The notes under the pieces were generated by a model that did not search any database, was not told the DNA's origin, and saw only the letters and a list, made by a program, of their open reading frames with translations. This document shows positions 8,076 through 22,382 of a stretch of DNA of 64,000 nt, one piece after another (the first letter of the stretch is position 1; every line of letters begins with the position of its first letter). The stretch is from a virus (taxonomy: Duplodnaviria > Heunggongvirae > Uroviricota > Caudoviricetes). Position numbers and translations under genes: made by a program. Location: IMG/VR virus record IMGVR_UViG_2939121850_000001. One strand, written 5' to 3'.

Positions 8076-8657
8076 ATGGCACCTATACCTTATGGGGTTT
8101 ACAGCCAGGCTGACGGTGTATCGCCATTTCTGAAAGTTACTTTAACGAACTCTCAGTACCAGGTTACCGGATATATCAGCCAGGGGGCAGCAATGAACAT
8201 GGCCCAGAATTGGGAAGCGCCGTTTACCGGTATGTCCATGGGGTCTGTTGCTGGTGCTTTCAGTGGTTTTGCGCAGGTTGGTACTGAAACAACGTCGGTG
8301 GCCCGTTGGAACAGCTTAATGGTTTGGGAGGGGGGAACACCGCCGACTTTCACGCTGCCAGTAACTTTCATCGCTTTGTTTGACCCATTCACTGAGGTTT
8401 CAGGAGCTATCGCCGCATTGTCAGCGATGATTAGCCCGGAACTTAAAGATGCCAGCATTGGTGGTCGAATCCCGGAGCGTGTGACGCTAAACATTGGTCG
8501 CCGGATCAACATCATTGATGTCGCTATCCAGGACATAAGTTTCGATCTCGATGCGCCCAGGGACAGCAATGGGCATTTCCTGAAAAACACCGTCAACCTC
8601 CAGTTGACCGGTTCTTCGATATATAACAGCTCCGATATTGTTCGGGCGTTCCAGTAA
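8076..8657 (+). CDS. Putative tail tube protein
   Basis: 193-aa (~21 kDa) ORF after sheath-like gene; assignment by synteny and size. Confidence 0.45.
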   Translation: MAPIPYGVYSQADGVSPFLKVTLTNSQYQVTGYISQGAAMNMAQNWEAPFTGMSMGSVAGAFSGFAQVGTETTSVARWNSLMVWEGGTPPTFTLPVTFIALFDPFTEVSGAIAALSAMISPELKDASIGGRIPERVTLNIGRRINIIDVAIQDISFDLDAPRDSNGHFLKNTVNLQLTGSSIYNSSDIVRAFQ

Positions 8658-8668
8658 AAGGATTTTAT

Positions 8669-9178
8669 ATGGGGCACAATAACACTAAGGGAAACCGTAA
8701 ATTTATTAAGGGCCGCTATACTGCCAACGCGGCCAAAGGCGAACGACTGGTATCTTCTGAATTCCAGCTCACTTTTGCAGGCCATGAAGATATCAGCGTA
8801 CTGGTTCGCACGTCGCAAATTCCTGAAATGACCCGCGAGGATGTGGAGGACTATGGTCCGAATGGTGTGAAGTTCAACCAGCACGGTCCAATTCGAAACT
8901 CTGGGGAAATCCAGGTCCAGTGCGTGGAGACTATCGAAGGCGATATTCTTCAGTTCATTAAAGATCGCATTGCGGCGAAGGACTATGTTGATATCACGAT
9001 GGCTGCGACCCCTGAATCCAAATCTTCCGGGGTTAACGCTGTGACAAAAGCTGCTACAACAATTGAAATGTTGGACTGCAAAATCTACAGTGATGCAATC
9101 GACTTTAGTACCGAAGATGTGACTGCCGCTGTGCGCCCGTCACTTCGTATCGTCTACAACTGGATTGAGTGGGATTAA
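8669..9178 (+). CDS. Putative tail tube or tail structural protein
   Basis: 169-aa ORF, last gene of operon before a strong terminator. Confidence 0.45.
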   Translation: MGHNNTKGNRKFIKGRYTANAAKGERLVSSEFQLTFAGHEDISVLVRTSQIPEMTREDVEDYGPNGVKFNQHGPIRNSGEIQVQCVETIEGDILQFIKDRIAAKDYVDITMAATPESKSSGVNAVTKAATTIEMLDCKIYSDAIDFSTEDVTAAVRPSLRIVYNWIEWD

Positions 9179-9197
9179 GAGTCATCCCTTGTATTTT

Positions 9198-9223
9198 AAA
9201 GCTCCTTCGGGAGCTTTTTTATT
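9198..9223 (+). terminator. Rho-independent terminator of the tail tube operon
   Basis: AAAGCTCC-ttcg-GGAGCTTT stem followed by TTTTTATTT. Confidence 0.7.
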
Positions 9224-9293
9224 TGGAGAGGAAAGGGTGCATTGAGGATACCTGACACACGAAGAGTGGCGGGATCTCTCCCCGCCAGGTCTC

Positions 9294-9449
9294 TTACCTT
9301 TCAGATTCGTAGGCTGTGAAGACAGTGACCTCCGTCTGGCCGGTTCGGATTCGTACCTCGCAGAGGTCTTTCCTCGTTACCAGTGCCGTCACAATGACGG
9401 TTAAACAGATGACGATCAGAGCGATTAATATCGCTTTTTGCTGCTTCAT
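9294..9449 (-). CDS. hok: Hok/Gef-family type I toxin (51 aa)
   Basis: Hand translation of minus strand: MKQQKAILIALIVICLTVIVTALVTRKDLCEVRIRTGQTEVTVFTAYESER, near-identical in pattern to E. coli Gef/HokC; SD AAGGAG upstream. Below ORF-track size cutoff. Confidence 0.8.
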   Translation of the reverse strand: MKQQKAILIALIVICLTVIVTALVTRKDLCEVRIRTGQTEVTVFTAYESER

Positions 9450-9507
9450 AGCCTGCTTCTCCTTGACCTTTTGGTCGGTAAGAGGCTAATCTACGTATGC
9501 TAAGCAT
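9301..9507 (-). CDS. mok-like overlapping reading frame
   Basis: 68-aa ORF in another frame starting 58 nt upstream of hok and overlapping it, as in hok/mok/sok loci. Confidence 0.45.
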   Translation of the reverse strand: MLSIRRLASYRPKGQGEAGYEAAKSDINRSDRHLFNRHCDGTGNEERPLRGTNPNRPDGGHCLHSLRI

Positions 9508-9560
9508 AGATATTGCCTCAGATTAATGTTAAGCGTCTTGCAGGACGCGTAATGTTATCT
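9470..9560 (+). ncRNA. Inferred Sok-like antisense RNA region (boundaries not determined)
   Basis: Expected opposite the mok start/hok leader; TTGACC -35-like at 9463. Inference only. Confidence 0.25.
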
Positions 9561-9630
9561 GGGGCTTTCTTCTATCTGCTTTTCGGGTAATGCCTGAAGC
9601 AGATAGCCTCAAGCACCCGCAGCGATTGTA

Positions 9631-9876
9631 TCAATGTCTGGCTTTTTTTCTATAGAAATCACCTGGAAGGGTGAATATCCACATCAGAAGAAATGTTGCA
9701 GCAAACATGATCCCTAATGGCCAGACCGCGCCAAAGAAAATCCATACTAAGATCTCCTCTGCTTGTTCTTTGCGGTCGATATCGACAAGCATTTTTCGGC
9801 TGATCATGTATACACAGAAGCCAATACAAACATATCCTGCAAAAGCGATCGCTAACTGTAAAAAATCAGATTGCAT
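9631..9876 (-). CDS. Small two-TM membrane protein downstream of repL
   Basis: 81-aa ORF from internal ATG with SD GAGG; hydrophobic segments LAIAFAGYVCIGFCVYMI and ILVWIFFGAVWPLGIMFAATFLLMWIF. Confidence 0.4.
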   Translation of the reverse strand: MQSDFLQLAIAFAGYVCIGFCVYMISRKMLVDIDRKEQAEEILVWIFFGAVWPLGIMFAATFLLMWIFTLPGDFYRKKARH

Positions 9877-9926
9877 CTCCGACCTCAAACTGAAAACGCC
9901 AGGTAACTCCAGATTAGAGCAATCTA

Positions 9927-10772
9927 TCACCCTCTGAATCCTGCCGGTATACCCCATTGTTCGTTATCTTTATTTTTGGCTAAAACCGCATTAAGAGCTT
10001 CGTTTACCGTCATGCAATGCGGCAGATTATCGAAGTTTGATACCCCGCCAATATCAGGAGAACGCTTGTTCTTCAGGTAAGCATATTTCCGCGCTGCCGC
10101 CTCTACCTTCTGCTTGAACTCATGTTTTTGAGCGCGTTTTTTGGATAACCGCAGATTGTCAGCCTTTGCTTTTGCCTCAGCGATCCATGAAGTCAATTTT
10201 TTGAGTCTGCTCGTTCCGGCACCGCCGGAAACTGATCTTTTTGTTTTTTTAACTTGTGACTTCTTATTCTTTATTGCCACGTCATCCTGACAGGGGGAGG
10301 GGGTATCATTTTGACATGGGGGTGTGGATAAAAAATTAAATAAAGCCAATGTCTTAGCGAGAACAGCTTTAACCTTGGTTGCCGCTGAAGAGATCTTTAA
10401 TTTGCTTTCAATCAGCGCATTTTTGGCTTGTTGTGCGAAGGCCAAAAAGGATGGTGTAAACCGGTACAGGTTAGCGCGACGTTCACGGTGATCGCCGATA
10501 ACAATCTCTACAGACAGAATTCCTTTGTTTACAGCTTCACGGAATGCACGAACGACGGTTGATTGGCTATAACCAGTTTCTGCCGCGATCAGGCGGTGAG
10601 GCTTGTGAATGAAGTATTCACTGGTTGTTGCCGCGAGATTTGCACATTGCGACAGGATATGCCCGGCGCTACGGGATAGACCGGAGTGTGTTACAAAGCA
10701 GGCCAATTCATAGCCAGAAAAAGTAAAATCGCTCATCGTTATACAGCTCAGGAAAGTGACTTTAGCCAGCAT
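9927..10772 (-). CDS. repL: Lytic replication initiator RepL
   Basis: 281-aa ORF downstream of kilA; size and sequence match my recollection of P1 RepL. Confidence 0.8.
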   Translation of the reverse strand: MLAKVTFLSCITMSDFTFSGYELACFVTHSGLSRSAGHILSQCANLAATTSEYFIHKPHRLIAAETGYSQSTVVRAFREAVNKGILSVEIVIGDHRERRANLYRFTPSFLAFAQQAKNALIESKLKISSAATKVKAVLAKTLALFNFLSTPPCQNDTPSPCQDDVAIKNKKSQVKKTKRSVSGGAGTSRLKKLTSWIAEAKAKADNLRLSKKRAQKHEFKQKVEAAARKYAYLKNKRSPDIGGVSNFDNLPHCMTVNEALNAVLAKNKDNEQWGIPAGFRG

Positions 10773-12810: not shown

Positions 12811-13028
12811 AAACCCCCCTGAACGTCGGCAGAGAAGGGGAGGCTCCAGTAACTAAGTGAATTGCGCGAGTTAGTTGAAAAACGGGCTGTAAAAATGCAG
12901 GGGCCATCAGGCAATTGAGAGCGTGCTTCGTCTTCTGTTGCTGCGATAACGAAGTGATAGTGGTGTTTTTTACAGGAATAGAAACGCCAGATGAATTCTG
13001 GGCGTGCGCAAGGATTGGCATTAACCAT
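12807..13028 (-). CDS. icd: Icd (interference with cell division), 73 aa
   Basis: ATG at 13028 gives MVNANPCARPEFIWRFYSC...GGL; stop overlaps ant start; conserved against the second copy. Confidence 0.75.
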   Translation of the reverse strand: MVNANPCARPEFIWRFYSCKKHHYHFVIAATEDEARSQLPDGPCIFTARFSTNSRNSLSYWSLPFSADVQGGL

Positions 13029-13077
13029 AGTTACGGCCTCATTCGTAGGTTTAACAACCTGCGCCCCGCTGCTAAAC

Positions 13078-13155
13078 GGGTGGCAGGACGTGACGGGGTT
13101 AGCAGACTGGCACGAATGAAACCAGCAGGCCGAAGCCTCCCCATCACGCCCCACC
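13078..13155 (-). ncRNA. c4: c4 antisense repressor RNA of immI (~78 nt)
   Basis: Minus-strand 5' GGUGGGGCGUGAUGGGGAGGCUUCGGCC...CCACCC 3' with terminal complementarity and UUCG tetraloop hairpin; between Op51 and icd. Confidence 0.55.
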
Positions 13156-13342
13156 ATAATTCGGGCGTAACGTGGTTTTACGGACACAAAAATACCGCAA
13201 TATCGGATATCTGCGGTTGTCCGCATTCGTATTCAGGCTGCTAAACCCGGTCGCAGAATTTGCTACGACGGCGGAACTATAAGCCTGAACGATTAAAAGG
13301 TCAATATGATGCGAAAAGATAGCATTCGCGACTTAAAAATAC

Positions 13343-13359
13343 AAATTTATTAGAGCATT
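13343..13359. promoter_or_regulatory. C1 operator (Op51-like) at the immI promoter
   Basis: AAATTTATTAGAGCATT. Confidence 0.6.
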
Positions 13360-13455
13360 AATTGTATAACAAATACACAAATGGATCTAATAACCTCTTT
13401 TTTTTAAAGGCGAAAATATGTACCCTAAATGGGTTATAAGGCAGGTGAGGTTATA

Positions 13456-14103
13456 ATGAGAAAACTATTACTACCGTTATTATTTATGGCTGGGACTGTT
13501 AATGCAGCATCAAGCGTAAAGGAGATTTGTACCGATTATACGAAATACCTTGGGCACGTTTACGGCTTTGCTGTCAGTCAAGATGAATCCATGCGCAAGA
13601 AGTTACTGTCAGATATGAAACGCCTTAAACTTTCTGAAGCGATGGTGCAGCAAGAACTGTATAAAGTCGCAACCAACGAAAATGCTAAATATCAATATTC
13701 TCGCCTGTTAAATCCCGACGCAAACGAGATCAATCGAAGCTCTTTCGATTATATGGTAAAGGCATGCGAAACCGCTCCTGATTTTGCTATTCCTAGCTGG
13801 GGTGTGCTGGTGGCGAGCAATGCCGTTAATAAAGAAGACGTTGGAAGAAATGGCATTGATTCAATCAGAAACTCCCCGGGAATGCGCCATCAAAACGTTC
13901 AGGGTACGCTTGAAGAACGGGCCAGGGGGCCGGGTACAAACTCCCCAATGGGAAACCTCTCCCCGGAGGAATTGCAAGAGTATAACCAACGGATGGAGCA
14001 GTATGAGAAAGCTGCACGCGAAAAAATGGAACAACAAAAAAACGGATCTCTTAATACTTTCCAGCAAGGTTTAAAAGCGCTTAATTTACCCTATGAATGG
14101 TGA
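13456..14103 (+). CDS. Sim-like periplasmic protein (putative superinfection exclusion) with signal peptide
   Basis: 215-aa ORF from ATG 13456 (MRKLLLPLLFMAGTVNAASS); ~40% GC; internal motif RNSPGMRHQNVQGTLEERARGPGT also found in Sit. Confidence 0.5.
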   Translation: MRKLLLPLLFMAGTVNAASSVKEICTDYTKYLGHVYGFAVSQDESMRKKLLSDMKRLKLSEAMVQQELYKVATNENAKYQYSRLLNPDANEINRSSFDYMVKACETAPDFAIPSWGVLVASNAVNKEDVGRNGIDSIRNSPGMRHQNVQGTLEERARGPGTNSPMGNLSPEELQEYNQRMEQYEKAAREKMEQQKNGSLNTFQQGLKALNLPYEW

Positions 14104-14154
14104 ATATATGGTGGTTAACTAATTAAAATATTAATATCCAAAGGAGATAAATTA

Positions 14155-14631
14155 ATGCGCATCAAACGATTTTTACTAGTTCTTGCTTTGCTTACTCCGT
14201 TTTCATCAATGGCAAATGTAAGCAAATGGTCAACCGGCGAGACTCATGGTGTTCGTTCTTATGCTGTTTCCAGCAAAGATAATTATACGCTTACATTTGA
14301 GTGCGATGTTGGATTTAATAATACGGATCCCAATCAAGTAGGAACACGACTACTCACTCTCATGAAAACAGAACCTGGCGGTGAGTCATTTGATGCTAAA
14401 AAAGAACAAATAACGCTGAAAGTTGGTGATGATGAATATCCTATCAGTTCTATCGGTTCCTCTGTGGGTGATAGTTACTGGTATGGTTTTTGGTCAGATA
14501 CCCCTGATATGGAAGTTAAAACATTCGATGCATACGTAGACGGAAAAAAAATCGCAACATTTACGCTACGTAAGGCCGCAGAGCTTTTCAACGCGGCACC
14601 TGAAGATGGCTGCCTGAAGCGCGCAAAATGA
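14155..14631 (+). CDS. Secreted/periplasmic protein of unknown function
   Basis: 158-aa ORF with N-terminal signal peptide MRIKRFLLVLALLTPFSSMA; ~38% GC. Confidence 0.5.
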   Translation: MRIKRFLLVLALLTPFSSMANVSKWSTGETHGVRSYAVSSKDNYTLTFECDVGFNNTDPNQVGTRLLTLMKTEPGGESFDAKKEQITLKVGDDEYPISSIGSSVGDSYWYGFWSDTPDMEVKTFDAYVDGKKIATFTLRKAAELFNAAPEDGCLKRAK

Positions 14632-14639
14632 CCTGTCAC

Positions 14640-14658
14640 AAATGACTACTCGTAGAAT
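14640..14658 (+). promoter_or_regulatory. Late promoter-like element AAATGACTA-N4-TAGAAT
   Basis: Degenerate copy of AAGTNACTT-N4-TAnnnT upstream of the 14690 gene. Confidence 0.4.
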
Positions 14659-14665
14659 CGGTTAA

Positions 14666-15256
<591 letters not shown>

Positions 15257-15266
15257 GGGAGCTGAT

Positions 15267-15878
15267 ATGGGGCTTAATGTTGCTTCAGTAAAGTCTTATG
15301 TATCTTCGGCATTAACGACGACATTATTTGGCTCCGGCGTTGGTGAGCGGGAAGTTGGTAAGCTGACGTCAATCATCATGAACAAAATGTTGTTCGCGCA
15401 AGGATGGCAGTTCTCTGTCGAAGTTGATGGACTGGAGGGGGCAGACTTCTTTGCCAAAGACATTACCTACCACGATTACAGCATCGAATATGAAACGATT
15501 AAAATCGGCGGAGGGAATATCCTTCAACCAACGGAGCGTTCGCCTGGGCAGATAACAATGATGGTCAGGGATACCGTTGATGGCCTCGTTTTGGACTGGT
15601 TTAAGACGGCAAAAAGTCGGGTGATTAATCCAGACGGTACCGGGAATATACCGTCTAAATATTTGCTCAATGTGCGTATTTATCGGTTGCTGTCTTCCGG
15701 CTTAACCAAACTGGAAAATGAGATGACTGTATTCCCTGTCACTACCGGCGATGTCACCTATGCGCGGGATCAGGTTACGGAATTTAAGTCATTCCCAATG
15801 ACCTTCGCATTGCACAGCACGTTTAACCAATCCTCAAGTTCTTTGGCTTCCCTTCTGGGCTTTAGTTTTTCTCTTTGA
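15267..15878 (+). CDS. Putative tail structural protein
   Basis: 203-aa ORF with SD. Confidence 0.45.
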   Translation: MGLNVASVKSYVSSALTTTLFGSGVGEREVGKLTSIIMNKMLFAQGWQFSVEVDGLEGADFFAKDITYHDYSIEYETIKIGGGNILQPTERSPGQITMMVRDTVDGLVLDWFKTAKSRVINPDGTGNIPSKYLLNVRIYRLLSSGLTKLENEMTVFPVTTGDVTYARDQVTEFKSFPMTFALHSTFNQSSSSLASLLGFSFSL

Positions 15879-15892
15879 ATTAAGGAGCAAGG

Positions 15893-16774
15893 ATGCTTTT
15901 ACCCCTTTTCCCGCTACCATCGCGGCCAACTGAATTGATCCAGTTCCGTCAGCCAAATATTGCTGATGCGATGCGTTTCAACTCGATAACACCGGAGGAA
16001 CAAGAACAACAGACAACGGCGTATTTAAAAGCCTTGCTGGCTGAACCCGCGAAATATGATCCCCTGACATGGACGGCGCAGGACCGGATTACCGCGTTAT
16101 GGTGGATATTTACTGGCTCCCGTGAAACACCGGTCGAGACATTCACCTACACCTGTAAACATTGCGGTAAAGAGCATTATTACGATTGCGATATGAATGC
16201 TCTGGCTGAAGATATCCAGGTCCTGGAAGTGGAACCGTTCATTGACGATATTGAGGTGTCTGTAGAGGGCGTGCCTTATCAATGGCGTATCGTGCCGCTT
16301 GATGGTTGGGCAATGGAAATGCTGGAGATGCGCCGTGCAGCATTGCCACCTGAAGACGACGCGGAATTCAAAGAAGCGATCGTTGATTTGCGTTTTTGGG
16401 AATTCGCTTATCAGTGTGAACTTTATAACGATGTTAGCGGTACTCGTGAAGAGCAGGCTGAGCGTCGTTATGAAACGATCAAACGGATGGCCATTGATAC
16501 TGAATTTATGAAGCTGGCGGCACACATCCGGCTGGCTCATGAAAAGCTCGAACATGGTTTACCGTGCTACATCGATAAAGGCGAAATGCGTCTTCGTCTC
16601 CCGCCGCACAAATGCCCAAACCAGGATACAAAGGAGTCCACAGAGGGTGCGTATACCCGTCTGTGGGTGCCCTTTCGGGCTACCGACTTCATTCCACAGG
16701 TGGGGATTGAAAAGCTATCAGACCTTAGTGTCCAACCTGGTTTTGTATGGGGGTATACCGATTCAGGACGCTGA
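15893..16774 (+). CDS. Putative tail assembly protein with Cys cluster
   Basis: 293-aa ORF just upstream of the tape measure gene; CKHCGKEHYYDCD motif. Confidence 0.45.
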   Translation: MLLPLFPLPSRPTELIQFRQPNIADAMRFNSITPEEQEQQTTAYLKALLAEPAKYDPLTWTAQDRITALWWIFTGSRETPVETFTYTCKHCGKEHYYDCDMNALAEDIQVLEVEPFIDDIEVSVEGVPYQWRIVPLDGWAMEMLEMRRAALPPEDDAEFKEAIVDLRFWEFAYQCELYNDVSGTREEQAERRYETIKRMAIDTEFMKLAAHIRLAHEKLEHGLPCYIDKGEMRLRLPPHKCPNQDTKESTEGAYTRLWVPFRATDFIPQVGIEKLSDLSVQPGFVWGYTDSGR

Positions 16775-16855
16775 AAGGCTCACTGAATCCTATGCGTTTT
16801 TCCTGTTGGAGAAACTGGAAGAAAAACTTAAACCGAAACGGTAGGCGATAAGATC

Positions 16856-19800
16856 ATGGAAAGAAAAAACGCCAATATTGACGATGTTATAAGGACAGTT
16901 GAAACCGCCAGCGCGAAAGAGCTGGAAGAGCTTGCAGGTATTCGGGAAGCTGTTGAAGATTTGAAAGGGGAACGAGTTGCAACTGTTGATCCTGTCTCTC
17001 GCAGTGTGTCGGCATTAAATCGCACAATCGAAAATTCACGTCCTGACTTTGTGACCAATGTGCCATCAGTGGACTCTATTGTTGACGCAATGAAACGGCT
17101 TAATTTAGGGGACGTTTCTCGTATACGGGAGGACAAAGTCACTAACCGTGAACAGCAGGCTGCACCAACAGCGCACAATCCCCCAAATAGACGAAGAGAG
17201 GCAATAACAGAGGATGTTAAAGCACAGCGGTTAGAAACGGTCAAACTCGCTCGTGATTTGAAAGGGGAACGCGTTGCAACGGTTGACCCAGTATCTCGCA
17301 GTGTGTCGGCATTAAATCGAACAATCGAAAATTCCCGGCCAGACTTTGTGGCCAATGCGCCATCAGTAGACCCTATTGTTGACGCAATGAAACGGCTTAA
17401 TTTAGGGGACGTTTCTCGTGTAGTTCAGGAGGGCATTGCTCAACAGGAACAGCAGGCCAAATCAACTACACCAAAGGGTAAAAAAAGACGCAGGAAGGCT
17501 ATATCAGAGGATATAAAGGCACAACGGACCGAAGCAGCCGAACACGCTCGCGAAATGTTCGATCAAAAAGGCGGTGCGCAAAAAAGCCAAAACCAACGCG
17601 ATGCGCGTGGTCGTTTTATTGGAAAGTCAGGGAGTAAGGCCGCAGCGGAAGATGCCCGTGCTGAACGTGCTGAAAAGGCCAGGCGCAAAGAGGATGATGA
17701 GCGTCTAAATGCTGAATCAGGTTTATTAAAAAAACTGTCAAAAGTAGCTGAAGGCATAGGTAACCCTTCAGAGACTCGTGCCGTCGATGCGTTAGGTTAT
17801 GCCGTTGCTGGTCCATTGTGGGCAGCAGGGAAGGAGCTTGGCGGGATATCAAAAGAAGTTGGTGGATCGCTTAATGGTGCCAGAAAGTCTATTGCCGATG
17901 TGATTCGTGGCAATGACGATAACAGCCGTAGAAAAGGTTTTTTTAGGCGTAAATCGCAAAATAGTGCCGATGTCGTTCAGGTTAACACCCAAAAACGGAC
18001 GGTTCAGGAACTTCAGGAGCAGACCAGCGAAATTAAAGAGGGCAATGACAAGATTCTCAGCGCCCTTGATCAGATAGCCAAAAACACCGGGAAAAAGAAG
18101 GGCGGCTTGCTGTCCAAACTATTTAGCCTGTTAGGGAAGGGGGCCGGTGGCGTCGCGTCGTTGTTAATGGGGCGTGGCATGCTGAAAAAAGCTGGAGCAC
18201 TCGCTTTTGGCGCTCTGGGGGCAAAGAAACTTTTAGGAATGCTACGCGGTGGTGGCAAGAAGACTATCGCCCATGAAGGTGGAGATTTGGCTGCCCGGGC
18301 AGCAGGTAAATTTGGATTAAAGGCAGTTGGTAAAGGGGCGTTACGCGCAATTCCCTTAGTCGGCACAGTGGCTGGAGGTATTTATGATGCGGTAACCGGT
18401 TGGAATGATACAGAAGCGCAACGTCGAGCGTTTGGGCTTAAATCAGGACAAGATCCATCATTCCAGCAAAAAGCCGCTTATACGTTAGCCAATGTTCTTG
18501 ATATGGGGGGACTGGTATCTGGTATTAGCAGCGCCATTGGTGAGGTTCTCAAATCACTTGGATTTGAGGATATCGGCAATATGTTGCAATCATTTTCGAC
18601 GGAAAGTATTGCCCAGGCCATTGATAGTGGGATTACCAACTTAGAAACATATATTTCTAACCTTGGCGACACCATTTCTACCAAGTTCGAAGATTACACA
18701 GCAAAGATTGGTGATGCTGTTTCAGCATGGTTTAGCGATACATCTAATAAGCTGCTTGAAAAGCTGGATGCCATCAAAGACTTCTTTACTGTTGATAACC
18801 TGAAACAGGTTTTCAGTGATGCAATTGATAGTGCAATTGATTTCATTAAGAACCCAGGGAAACACATTAAAGAGGCGGCTGGTAATATTTGGGATGGGGT
18901 TAAAAATTTACCTGGTAAAGCATTAGATGCAGCGGTTGATGCCGTTAAAAATACCCCTGCGGCAATGATTGTATCAAAAATACCCAATCCGATCGGCGAG
19001 GCTAATGCGAAAGAAATCACTCCAGAGTTAAAAGCTCCGGTTAATAGCGAGGCTAATGCGAAAGAAATCGCTCCAGAGTTAAAAGCTCCGGTTAATAGCC
19101 ACCAGGAGACATCTGATTCTAAAACTGAATCCGATGCCAAACAGACTAATATTGTTACCCGCGTGATAAATGCGGCACTGGACACGGCGAAAGATAGCAA
19201 TGAAACAGTTAAAGAAACTGCGAATCAGATTATCAATGCAAATGCCGTAGAAACGGGCAATAGCGCGTTGCAGAAAATTGATAAAGCTATTGGTCAAAAT
19301 AGCTCGTCATCATCGTCGCTTAATACCACTGGCACCAGGAATGACATTCAGAAAGCTGCGGATACCTACAACAATGGCCGCTTGGATGTAAAAGTCGGAA
19401 GTCTTGGATCTGAAGGTAAGGCAAATCTCGATAAGTTGGCTCCGTATTTTGCTGAACTAGAGAATAAATATGGTCTTCCAGAAGGCACTCTTTACGCGAT
19501 TGCTGCAACTGAATCTGGTGGTAATCCGTATGCAAAATCCCAAACCGGTGCTCTGGGAATGTTTCAGTTCACGGGGATTGCTCGTGAAGAGACTGGCTTA
19601 GCTGAAGGTGAATCGTTTGATCCTGTGAAATCGGCAGAAGCTGCGGCTCTTCTCATGAGCAAGTATCTGAAGCAAGCCAATGGAGACTTAAACGAGGCCA
19701 TCACTGCATATAACGCTGGGTTTGGCACTATCAATAAGTGGAAAAAAGGCACAGGTGACTTATCGAAAGAAAACCGTGAGTACGCGATCAAGGTCAATAC

Positions 19801-20596
19801 TCATCGTGCTCGCTATTTAGGTGGTGAAATCTATACACCTGGAGCAGGAGCACAGGGTGGGGCGCAATATGGAGTGAGGGGACCACTGCCTGATAACGCT
19901 GTTATCGATCAGTCTACTGGCCTGGCGTTTACCCCTGGTGATAGCCCGTTTGAGAAAGGCGGTCTGGTAGACAAAATCGGCAATGCTGTTGGCGTTAACG
20001 ATCTGGTCAACAAATTCATGAATGGCCGGGGTATGCGTCGGGAAGTCGTTCAGGGAACGCTCGAAGAACGTGCACGAGGGAAGGGGACCGCAACAGCAGC
20101 TGGCAATGTGTATGTTGATATTCCGATGCCAGTTGAAGAGGCGCGTCCGGTGGCCAGCAACTCAAGTTACTTTGACCAACTCGGCGCACAAATGGGGATT
20201 GATGGACTATTCGATAAACTCCGCAACTCGCCGGGGATGCGGAAAAATAATGTGCCTGAACCAGCCTCCACGTCCAAGGTGACGACTGCTGCCAACGATT
20301 TGCAGCAACCAACCGGTCGTATGCAGATAGACGGGCAGGTTATTAGTGACCTTGGCGGTTCCGGTGCCAAGCCGACAATGCAGTTGGCTGATAATACCGT
20401 TTCACTTGATGGTGAAACGAAGCGGCTGTTTGCGCAGATGACCTCATTGCTTGCCAGGATTGAAGAGCACACCAAAGACTCGGCGAAAGGCCAGGGAACT
20501 GTCGTAAAGGTCAGCACGCCTCAGCCGGGCGTTATGCGCACGGTACCACTGTCAATTGATGATCCGTTGATGAATGACTACGCGAGAGTTGATTGA
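16856..20596 (+). CDS. sit: Tape measure / injection transglycosylase Sit with soluble lytic transglycosylase domain
   Basis: 1246-aa ORF; SLT signature GALGMFQFTGIAREETG...ITAYNAGFG; Gly/Lys-rich segment; internal tandem repeats. Confidence 0.8.
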   Translation: MERKNANIDDVIRTVETASAKELEELAGIREAVEDLKGERVATVDPVSRSVSALNRTIENSRPDFVTNVPSVDSIVDAMKRLNLGDVSRIREDKVTNREQQAAPTAHNPPNRRREAITEDVKAQRLETVKLARDLKGERVATVDPVSRSVSALNRTIENSRPDFVANAPSVDPIVDAMKRLNLGDVSRVVQEGIAQQEQQAKSTTPKGKKRRRKAISEDIKAQRTEAAEHAREMFDQKGGAQKSQNQRDARGRFIGKSGSKAAAEDARAERAEKARRKEDDERLNAESGLLKKLSKVAEGIGNPSETRAVDALGYAVAGPLWAAGKELGGISKEVGGSLNGARKSIADVIRGNDDNSRRKGFFRRKSQNSADVVQVNTQKRTVQELQEQTSEIKEGNDKILSALDQIAKNTGKKKGGLLSKLFSLLGKGAGGVASLLMGRGMLKKAGALAFGALGAKKLLGMLRGGGKKTIAHEGGDLAARAAGKFGLKAVGKGALRAIPLVGTVAGGIYDAVTGWNDTEAQRRAFGLKSGQDPSFQQKAAYTLANVLDMGGLVSGISSAIGEVLKSLGFEDIGNMLQSFSTESIAQAIDSGITNLETYISNLGDTISTKFEDYTAKIGDAVSAWFSDTSNKLLEKLDAIKDFFTVDNLKQVFSDAIDSAIDFIKNPGKHIKEAAGNIWDGVKNLPGKALDAAVDAVKNTPAAMIVSKIPNPIGEANAKEITPELKAPVNSEANAKEIAPELKAPVNSHQETSDSKTESDAKQTNIVTRVINAALDTAKDSNETVKETANQIINANAVETGNSALQKIDKAIGQNSSSSSSLNTTGTRNDIQKAADTYNNGRLDVKVGSLGSEGKANLDKLAPYFAELENKYGLPEGTLYAIAATESGGNPYAKSQTGALGMFQFTGIAREETGLAEGESFDPVKSAEAAALLMSKYLKQANGDLNEAITAYNAGFGTINKWKKGTGDLSKENREYAIKVNTHRARYLGGEIYTPGAGAQGGAQYGVRGPLPDNAVIDQSTGLAFTPGDSPFEKGGLVDKIGNAVGVNDLVNKFMNGRGMRREVVQGTLEERARGKGTATAAGNVYVDIPMPVEEARPVASNSSYFDQLGAQMGIDGLFDKLRNSPGMRKNNVPEPASTSKVTTAANDLQQPTGRMQIDGQVISDLGGSGAKPTMQLADNTVSLDGETKRLFAQMTSLLARIEEHTKDSAKGQGTVVKVSTPQPGVMRTVPLSIDDPLMNDYARVD
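16958..17419 (+). repeat. Two ~165-bp near-identical in-frame direct repeats inside sit
   Basis: Units at 16958-17122 and 17256-17419 encoding ERVATVDPVSRSVSALNRTIENSRPDFV...AMKRLNLGDVSR twice. Confidence 0.7.
18998..19099 (+). repeat. Perfect-tandem 51-bp x2 repeat inside sit
   Basis: GAGGCTAATGCGAAAGAAATC(A/G)CTCCAGAGTTAAAAGCTCCGGTTAATAGC twice, one mismatch. Confidence 0.8.
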
Positions 20597-20952
20597 TGGC
20601 CAACAATAACGAAATTGATCCTTTGCTGACGCTGGAGTTATCCGGCGTAAAAACGTATGAGTCCCAGGAGGAGGCCTGGGGCGCTCGTTTATATGAGTGG
20701 CTAAACACTTATCAGGGTGAGGTATACGGAGATCCGTCATGGGGCAATGTTTTACCGCAGTTTAAACACGAACCGACCAACTTGTCGCATGTTCAAATTG
20801 CGGTTGAGGCAATGCTGTTGCAAAAACTGACGGTAGATTTACCTGACATACCGATTTCTGGCTTGTCAGTAGCCGAGGGAGATGCTTTTGATAAGTTGAA
20901 AATATCCATTCGTATCAGGGATATAACTATCACACAGGACGTGGTGCTATGA
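20593..20952 (+). CDS. Putative baseplate protein (gp25/GpW-like size class)
   Basis: 119-aa ORF overlapping sit stop. Confidence 0.45.
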   Translation: MMANNNEIDPLLTLELSGVKTYESQEEAWGARLYEWLNTYQGEVYGDPSWGNVLPQFKHEPTNLSHVQIAVEAMLLQKLTVDLPDIPISGLSVAEGDAFDKLKISIRIRDITITQDVVL

Positions 20953-22382
20953 GTAAAACAACACCGACTAAAGACAGTATTCGTGCAGAGTTTGAAGAGC
21001 TTGTCGAGAAAGATTCATTCTGGTCGAAGTTTGTCGGCTCTCAATTTGTCTCGATGCTGACATTGTTTATTACCCAGATTGTCTACAGGTGCTTTCAGTA
21101 TGCCGATGCGGCGCTGGCTGAAGGCTTTATATCGACCGCGACGCGGCGTTCCTCTATCCTGGCAGCGGCAGAAACGAATAGTTACGTTGGTACCAAGCCA
21201 ACACCGTCATCGGGGATGATTGAGATCACCGCCACAAGTGAAGATGCCCCAGCGGTAATCCCCAAAAACATGCCTTTAATATCTGACGACCAGTACCCTT
21301 ACATGACTATGGATGTATGCAGGTTGGTTGACGGCACCGGTACGGTAGAAGTGGCACAGTTGGAAATCCAGGAGGTGACATATACCGTTACGGCAGCCAA
21401 AGAATTTCTGGAAGTCGTGTTATCAAAGGCTCTTACTGCTGTCTGCTATAAGCTGGAAGTATTCGTGACGACCGATGGTAAGACCACGCAGTGGTCTTCC
21501 AGCACTATGTTCCGGTTAGCCGGTAGTAAAAGCCAGGTCTACGTTGAGTTTTATAAACCATCCGAGCAGTTGGGGGTTCGATTCGGCGATGGGCTAATTG
21601 GGCAAATACCGCCAGAAGGTTCGACAATTACGCTTAAGGTATGGTGCACCAACGGCGATATAACCCTGGTTGCTGGCCAAAACCTGACGCCTGTCGATTC
21701 TGCGGCTAATTTAGCTAATTTGATTTCAGTTAAGACAACGACACCTATAACCGCAGGTACCGATGCTGAAACAACGGAGATCACACGTAACCGTGCACAA
21801 TATTACCTTGCCTATGATGATCAGGTCGTATGGGGCGGGGACTATACGTATTTTCTGGTTCGTAACATCCCGGGGCTGTCCTGGGTAAAGGCATGGGGCG
21901 AAGGCCAGCAAGAGAAATTAGATGGTGCTTATAATGTTCAGAATATCAATAAGATATTTATTTCAGGATGGCATCCAAATAAAAGCCAGTCAGAGCTTGA
22001 AGAAATGATCCTGACTGCCTTTAAGAAGGTACCGAATGAACTGAACAAGAAATTCTCTTATAAAGAGGTCAGAAAACTACCATTTAAGATAACCATCACC
22101 GGGCGGATATCGGCAAGCCTGACTATTGAGAACGTGACTGATGAGTTGAAGTCGGCACTGGAAACAAAATTTGGGCGCGACTCAAATTTCTTTGATCCGA
22201 ACGGTGTCGGCAAGTACATCCTGATCAAGAAAAAAGACGTTTGGGCATTTATCGAAACGCTGGGTTATTTCCGCGACTTTTATCTGGAATTTGTCGAGTG
22301 GAATGAGTCCAACGGCTTTTACGATTTCGTTTATCTGGATACAGAAAACTCCACCTTTAATATTTCGTATGAGGAGGAGTGA
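20949..22382 (+). CDS. Putative baseplate protein (J-like)
   Basis: 477-aa ORF overlapping neighbours by 4 bp. Confidence 0.45.
   Translation: MSKTTPTKDSIRAEFEELVEKDSFWSKFVGSQFVSMLTLFITQIVYRCFQYADAALAEGFISTATRRSSILAAAETNSYVGTKPTPSSGMIEITATSEDAPAVIPKNMPLISDDQYPYMTMDVCRLVDGTGTVEVAQLEIQEVTYTVTAAKEFLEVVLSKALTAVCYKLEVFVTTDGKTTQWSSSTMFRLAGSKSQVYVEFYKPSEQLGVRFGDGLIGQIPPEGSTITLKVWCTNGDITLVAGQNLTPVDSAANLANLISVKTTTPITAGTDAETTEITRNRAQYYLAYDDQVVWGGDYTYFLVRNIPGLSWVKAWGEGQQEKLDGAYNVQNINKIFISGWHPNKSQSELEEMILTAFKKVPNELNKKFSYKEVRKLPFKITITGRISASLTIENVTDELKSALETKFGRDSNFFDPNGVGKYILIKKKDVWAFIETLGYFRDFYLEFVEWNESNGFYDFVYLDTENSTFNISYEEE

Follow-up and report, generated by a model that had tools for sequence, protein, structure and literature searches.

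A secreted protein of 215 residues, encoded in the superimmunity (sim) cassette of a P1-like phage, carries a peptide of about 40 residues that recurs in Sit, the tape measure protein of the same phage. The presence of a tape measure peptide in the product of an exclusion locus suggests, on sequence grounds, that the protein may block the entry of related phages by mimicry. The window analyzed here is a stretch of 64,000 nucleotides, and the finding bears both on the passage of P1-like phage-plasmids through the periplasm and inner membrane and on how their sim locus excludes rivals. P1-like phage-plasmids are major carriers of resistance genes in Enterobacteriaceae.

The sim cassette and its 215-residue product

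Positions 13000-21000 of the window share 97-98% identity with P1-like phages (genus Punavirus), the nearest being vB_EcoM-Ro157c2YLVW; P1 and P7 span just 82-85% of this region because their sim-locus segment differs. The genes are arranged in the order ant1/2 (minus strand), icd, c4, the 215-residue protein gene (13456..14103, + strand), a 158-residue protein gene, pmgC, tub, pmgB, sit, pmgA, and bplA. The left border of the sim cassette (13343..13391, + strand) is formed by the C1 operator Oc4 (13343-13359, + strand), located by aligning the window without gaps to the annotated P1 record (L001 1843-1859), and by PsimA, a predicted sigma-70 promoter on the same strand (-35 element at 13365-13370 and -10 element at 13386-13391, aligned to L001 1865-1870 and 1886-1891). 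On its right, the variable cassette is bounded by the late promoter LPsit (14640-14658, + strand), a block without differences from LPsit as annotated in P1 and P7, and the late operon pmgC-tub-pmgB-sit begins at 14690. The 215-residue protein gene, situated between Oc4/PsimA and LPsit, therefore lies within the classical sim cassette and outside the late operon.

The contents of the cassette vary among elements: P1 has simB-simC, P7 encodes a lipoprotein and a DUF5384 protein, and other elements contain a 163-residue SimA-like variant together with genes for proteins of 168 and 325 residues. With the exception of the 325-residue protein, every cassette product examined has a signal peptide or lipoprotein signal at its start. 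Recombination is concentrated in the sim region, a hot spot described in the literature only as hypervariable (PMC9603915, PMC6906374). In the window, the second cassette gene (14155..14631, + strand; phrog_3429) encodes a secreted protein of 158 residues without similarity to Sit. Genes of this type are the usual 3' neighbors of SimA-like genes in P1-like elements of E. coli, Salmonella, and Klebsiella; they directly adjoin the SimA-like gene in L006-L010, and an extra ORF of 117 residues intervenes in L004 and L005. Homologs of the 158-residue protein at related loci carry the label PF27224 (YfjT), and the neighbor in L008 is 53% identical to it. The 163-residue SimA variant is followed instead by a distant 168-residue relative (29% identity) and by the 325-residue protein. 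Two Klebsiella-type P1-like elements (L008 and L010, about 8300-10100) lack the upstream icd-ant immunity genes and keep the SimA-like and YfjT-like pair directly before pmgC, so this pair is not tied to the immI region.

The 215-residue protein belongs to the full-length SimA family (phrog_3933) and matches its profile from end to end (E=9.8e-137; residues 1-215 aligned to positions 1-213 of a 213-position profile). Its start at 13456 is conserved family-wide and preceded by a GGTGAGG Shine-Dalgarno sequence; an additional in-frame ATG at 13429 occurs in the E. coli group only. The family comprises 28 homolog clusters, and those with contigs long enough to be judged for genomic context reside on P1-like phage-plasmid contigs of roughly 85-100 kb; for the most distant member (P0155), the contigs are too short to reveal a cognate Sit. 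Several homologs bear the database name "simA domain protein", and we found no paper on the intact, full-length family in the literature.

In P1 itself, SimA (gp043) has 52 residues and is annotated with a "putative superimmunity accessory function". This sequence (MSYKAGEVIMRKLLLPLLFMAGTVNAASSVKEICTDYTKYLGHVYAFAINDY, beginning MSYKAGEVIMRKLLLPLLFMAGTVNAASSVKEICTDYTKYLGHVY) matches almost perfectly the first ~45 residues translated from the ATG at 13429, which correspond to a 9-residue leader and about 36 residues of the 215-residue protein. The DNA is collinear with P1 from Oc4 to about 13520, apart from a few substitutions (for instance, the second codon of the 13429 ORF is GGT here and AGT in P1). 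Judged by these sequences, the 215-residue protein is the intact form of P1 "simA", and P1 SimA is its truncated N-terminus. The P1 remnant occupies L001 positions 1929-2087 (13429-13590 in the window), and the simB-simC insertion replaced the remainder of the gene. Among plasmids in PLSDB, 266 P1-like plasmids match the gene, 83 of them at full length; one class ends at residue 161, and many hold only a simA remnant of 43-48 residues. The same size classes are found in IMG/VR. Since P1 carries only the 52-residue remnant, the gene is dispensable. Whatever the mechanism of the protein, these comparisons correct the P1 simA annotation, which describes a truncated remnant of a 215-residue gene that is intact in many P1-like plasmids.

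The protein is composed of four parts. A Sec-type signal peptide, MRKLLLPLLFMAGTVNA (13456..13506, + strand), is predicted from the sequence, with cleavage after VNA (VNA/AS); it is conserved in all homologs, in agreement with the earlier description of the protein as secreted, and the cleavage region N-A-[AS]-S is invariant throughout the family. The conserved all-helical N-terminal domain that follows (residues 18-128; 13507..13839, + strand) is modeled with high confidence (residues 20-125, pLDDT above 90) and represents an orphan fold, as Foldseek returned nothing from BFVD at E<=0.001 and no structural relative from the PDB. The mature domain contains an invariant cysteine pair, C25 and C104, which would fit a periplasmic disulfide. 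The third part is the Sit-like linear motif VGRNGIDSIRNSPGMRHQNVQGTLEERARGPGTNSPMGNL (residues 129-168; 13840..13959, + strand), recovered by BLASTP, PHROG profile, and HMM scan. It lies in a linker that is predicted to be disordered (pLDDT about 46-58), with short helices at residues 133-138 and 152-156. The C-terminal helical tail (residues 170-208; 13963..14079, + strand), delimited by homolog alignment and structure model, is variable; it is swapped for a Cys-containing domain in other lineages and missing from the common 163-residue variant. Neither a lipobox (+1 Cys) nor a hydrophobic segment after residue 17 was found in the protein, and the structure model shows a soluble helical domain. 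An overlapping ORF of 96 residues (13784-14074, +1 frame relative to the 215-residue gene) corresponds to the tails of 205-residue frameshift variants in public assemblies. These variants switch frame at points from before the motif to just past it, some retaining ...ERARG, and the common natural 163-residue variant terminates in ...ERARGPGVAP.

Two further assignments were rejected. Homology to P1 SimC is not supported, as the two proteins belong to separate PHROG families (14355 and 3933) and a BLASTP search with SimC against all six-frame ORFs of the window gave nothing at E<=0.05. The label "Sim-like" given in the first-pass annotation is inaccurate if taken to mean similarity to SimC, the protein known to cause exclusion, and is better replaced by "full-length SimA". 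A match to PTP-like phytases (PF14566) reached 26.6 bits, below the gathering cut-off of 27, and covered the helical residues 24-109 only; the catalytic C(X)5R loop was not found in the 215-residue sequence, and PTP-like phytases require HC(X)5R. A search of NCBIfam returned nothing for the protein, and the PADLOC-DB defence models matched neither it, nor the 158-residue protein, nor SimC.

The motif shared with Sit

The sit gene (16856..20596, + strand), assigned from its ORF and by comparison with P1-like records, encodes a tape measure and injection transglycosylase of 1246 residues with an SLT domain (PF01464, Pfam match; residues 864-973, nt 19445-19774, + strand). The first-pass annotation had proposed that the 215-residue protein shares segments with Sit, and its translation and BLASTP comparison agree: composition-corrected alignments join residues 122-168 to Sit 1043-1085 (E=7e-9) and residues 129-148 to Sit 1113-1133 (E=1e-3), with nothing significant outside the motif. 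The peptides concerned are GIDSIRNSPGMRHQNVQGTLEERARGPGT in the secreted protein (residues 133-161, nt 13852-13938) and NGRGMRREVVQGTLEERARGKGT (residues 1056-1078, nt 20021-20089) and GIDGLFDKLRNSPGMRKNNV (residues 1114-1133, nt 20195-20254) in Sit; their positions had been given correctly to within a few bases. The PHROG profile of the Sit family (phrog_2533) likewise matches residues 129-171 of the secreted protein (E=1.2e-7). As had been noted, the core VQGTLEERARG is identical at all 11 residues; the DNA agrees at 27 of 33 nucleotides, and each of the six mismatches is synonymous.

Scanning the six-frame translation of the window with an HMM recovered three copies of the motif only, one in the secreted protein and two in Sit. 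Sit copy 1 is complete (residues 1043-1085, NAVGVNDLVNKFMNGRGMRREVVQGTLEERARGKGTATAAGNV; 19982..20110, + strand; 77.7 bits), and copy 2 comprises the first half only (residues 1113-1133, MGIDGLFDKLRNSPGMRKNNV; 20192..20254, + strand; 19.1 bits). The motif forms a single collinear unit of about 40 residues, [DN].[LM]..KF[ML]N..GMR...V.G[TS]L..RA.G.GT....GN[VL], and the copy in the secreted protein aligns end to end with Sit copy 1. The earlier view of this copy as a composite of two Sit segments therefore has to be abandoned. It merely appears composite because the first half of Sit copy 1 has diverged within the E. coli lineage (NGRGMRRE); in other lineages the corresponding segment reads NSRGMRHE or NAPGMRHQ, near the version of the secreted protein. 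Sit copy 2 is a lineage-specific partial duplicate, present as an insertion confined to the E. coli P1 group, where it has two alleles (LRNSPGMRK and LINARGMRS), and not present in Salmonella- and Klebsiella-type Sit proteins. A Sit-like protein of 1367 residues from a distant P1-like element (P0156; L014 7001-11104) also contains the motif core twice, as AEGMRHQVSAGTL and as AEGMRHQVATGEG, the result of a duplication independent of that in the E. coli P1-type Sit.

Within Sit, the motif occupies a characteristic position, beginning about 70 residues past the SLT domain in every Sit protein. In an AF2 model of the C-terminal part, the SLT domain is confident and everything after it, including the motif, is predicted to be disordered (pLDDT 30-46), with short helices over the same two motif parts as in the secreted protein. 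Sit is not resolved in P1 cryo-EM structures (PMC12810830). Across 12 Sit proteins with identities down to 29%, the motif (residues 1051-1080) has conservation scores of 0.73-0.83, compared with 0.26-0.5 for its flanks, and its conservation equals or exceeds that of the SLT domain.

Other parts of Sit also vary. The gene contains a tandem duplication of 297 bp (1.9 copies, 81% match; 16958-17527) and a 51-bp duplication (2 copies, 98% match; 18996-19099), which together make Sit 1246 residues long here, compared with 1140 in P1 and 1130 in P7. Because tape measure length sets tail length, the phage with the 1246-residue Sit may have a longer tail. Residues about 420-480 (17800-18250) form a glycine-rich hydrophobic stretch, GGLLSKLFSLLGKGAGGVASLLMGRGMLKKAGALAFGALGAKKLLGML, which looks like the membrane-inserting segment reported to be common in tape measure proteins.

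The motif is restricted to two protein families. When 1.84 billion representative proteins were searched exhaustively with a profile of the motif, 10 hits emerged (54-95 bits), all of which are P1-like Sit proteins, SimA-like proteins, or fragments thereof. No host protein carrying the motif was found in this search, so mimicry of a host ligand does not account for it. Among other cassette products, Sit-like segments were found in none of SimB, SimC, P7 Upf50.5 and Upf50.0, the 158-residue protein, and the L042 proteins of 168 and 325 residues. The motif is present in the Sit proteins of P1, P7, and distant P1-like phages without a sim cassette; its retention in Sit even where this cassette is missing marks it as an ancestral, intrinsic Sit feature. 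We found no paper describing it in the literature.

In the SimA-like family, the two halves of the motif differ in conservation. The homolog alignment proposed earlier as a check shows the first half in all 17 members examined and the second half in about half of the lineages, the others turning to a Cys-containing domain after GMR.QPS. N139 and R144 show no variation among the 17 homologs, and conservation at G142, M143, and Q146 is 94%. The core N..GMR.Q thus remains invariant or nearly so down to 37% overall identity, the level at which a 176-residue member retains NAPGMRHQAVKGSMAERARGDGT. The motif also persists where the C-terminus has been swapped and in the frequent 163-residue variant, which ends 6 residues past it.

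Comparison of cognate SimA-like and Sit proteins from four diverged lineages indicated that the sharing is old. BLASTP similarity is confined to the motif in each (E from 3e-10 to 8e-8), the cognate motif pairs are about 60% identical in protein and in DNA alike, and the same codon is used at merely 4-6 of 15-16 conserved residues per lineage. Synonymous sites are thus saturated in all four, which means that the sharing is ancient and that the peptide is held by selection in both proteins. This saturation in every lineage rules out a recent event, whether duplication or gene conversion, linking sit with the cassette gene, which bears out the first-pass view that no recent DNA duplication is involved. 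Co-variation between the partners is weak: the cognate Sit is the best motif match in two of the four lineages. Residues that are lineage-specific and common to cognate pairs are LEERARG (E. coli), NAPGMRHQ (L006), and G.GV (L009). The allele of Sit copy 2 is associated with cassette type (Fisher p=0.003), an association confounded by shared ancestry and by linkage of the two genes, which lie about 3 kb apart.

Possible roles of the shared peptide

The motif N..GMR..V.G.L..RA.G is a short, precisely delimited peptide and, within the tape measure protein, a strong candidate for a functional determinant of entry, and a natural soluble protein probably displays the same peptide in the periplasm. 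We consider mimicry of Sit, by which the 215-residue protein would interfere with genome delivery, the best-fitting explanation, and we advance it tentatively, at somewhat short of an even chance. According to this explanation, the protein would be exported to the periplasm as a helical domain with a flexible linker that displays the Sit peptide of about 40 residues, followed by a replaceable tail. Contraction of a P1-like tail would expel Sit into the same compartment, where its conserved motif would have to engage a partner, opening the path for the DNA; candidates for this partner are a component of the host envelope, a different part of Sit, or a further part of the tail tip. The resident SimA-like protein, presenting the same peptide, could then compete for the partner or co-assemble as a poison subunit, and delivery of a superinfecting P1-like genome would be blocked. 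The periplasmic location of the protein, the common partner, and the exclusion phenotype are the parts of this scheme that we infer.

Several features favor the mimicry explanation: the motif is exclusive to the two families, conserved, and predicted to be disordered, and the protein that carries it has a signal peptide and is encoded within the sim cassette. T4 Imm, an exclusion protein that acts on a tape measure protein, provides a precedent. Both copies fall in segments modeled with low confidence and predicted to be disordered, with two short helices at corresponding places, a pattern that would be expected of a peptide folding upon a partner. Several observations argue against mimicry: cognate co-variation is weak, the second half of the motif is lost in about half of the lineages, P1 has only the 52-residue remnant, and the P1 annotation assigns exclusion activity to SimC, which is unrelated to the 215-residue protein. 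Moreover, a soluble decoy would have to outcompete an ejected protein present at very high local concentration. The broader proposal that such an exported soluble decoy, by displaying the entry peptide of Sit, excludes all P1-like phages carrying that peptide seems to us possible, and we put it forward with greater reserve. If the decoy reading is true, the half-copy in the E. coli-type Sit and the independent duplication in the 1367-residue protein could be counter-moves in an arms race, and the motif would be the first functional entry determinant to be identified toward the C-terminus of the tape measure protein of a myophage.

The conservation, exclusivity, and disorder of the motif apply equally to a second explanation, which we regard as unlikely, namely that it is a shared docking peptide with no exclusion role. 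Both proteins would attach to one common component of the periplasm or envelope, for instance to be anchored, folded, or processed, and the SimA-like protein would serve another prophage function, such as envelope remodeling or lysogenic conversion. The usual pairing with a second secreted protein of the YfjT family, which hints at a two-protein envelope function, agrees with this possibility. However, the locus is a classical superimmunity cassette with SimC among its alternative occupants, and titration of a Sit partner would hinder entry whatever the "purpose" of the protein; the confinement of the motif to phage proteins speaks against docking by imitation of a host ligand.

An improbable third explanation is that the motif is a cis-regulatory or auto-inhibitory peptide of the SLT domain, which the secreted protein delivers in trans, stopping peptidoglycan cutting. 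The constant distance between SLT domain and motif in Sit would suit such an arrangement, and T4 Spackle, a periplasmic inhibitor of a tail lysozyme, provides a precedent. Against this, AF2 monomer models give the motif no confident contact to the SLT domain or to the SimA N-domain, in line with the low pLDDT downstream of the SLT domain, and the motif was not found in Klebsiella SLT proteins that have a related SLT domain (44% identity). The N-domain, in addition, has no fold similarity to Spackle or lysozyme inhibitors.

It is about equally improbable that the motif is an evolutionary leftover, a fragment of sit that entered the neighboring cassette gene by recombination and has remained there with no function of its own. 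The sim region is prone to such events, being a recombination hot spot (PMC9603915, PMC6906374), and C-terminal swaps, truncations, and frameshift variants are frequent in the family. However, the motif residues have been kept in four lineages although synonymous sites are saturated, N139 and R144 do not vary down to 37% identity, and the motif stays precisely where all downstream sequence has been replaced or lost. Chance resemblance between low-complexity or compositionally similar segments, for which nothing speaks but the shortness of the motif, has a negligible probability and is refuted by the composition-corrected BLASTP match, by the limitation of the profile hits to two families among 1.84 billion proteins, and by recurrence of the match in diverged lineages.

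Relation to known exclusion systems

Among the products of the sim locus, P1 SimA shares the locus and promoter region of the 215-residue gene but comprises no more than the signal peptide and the first part of the N-domain, without the motif, whereas the gene in the window is intact. P1 SimC occupies the same cassette position and, like the 215-residue protein, has a signal peptide and is presumed to be periplasmic; it differs in having no sequence similarity to this protein (phrog_14355) and no Sit-like motif. Exclusion by SimC acts past adsorption and before the DNA enters the cytoplasm.

T4 Spackle (Sp) is a small helical periplasmic exclusion protein that inhibits the tail lysozyme gp5 of the incoming phage. 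The 215-residue protein resembles it in being small, helical, predicted to be periplasmic, and made by the resident phage. No fold or sequence relation of its N-domain to Spackle or to lysozyme and lytic transglycosylase inhibitors was found, nor any sequence or fold similarity of the protein to T4 Imm, HK97 gp15, or TP-J34 Ltp.

The last three proteins affect the same process as the target proposed here, the genome delivery mediated by the tape measure protein, and T4 Imm directly binds the T4 tape measure protein (bioRxiv 10.64898/2026.03.06.709160). Imm, gp15, and Ltp, which are membrane proteins or lipoproteins, bind the tape measure protein, whereas the 215-residue protein is soluble and secreted and resembles a piece of the tape measure protein itself. 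If the decoy idea is true, mimicry of an injected protein would join the known modes of exclusion between phages.
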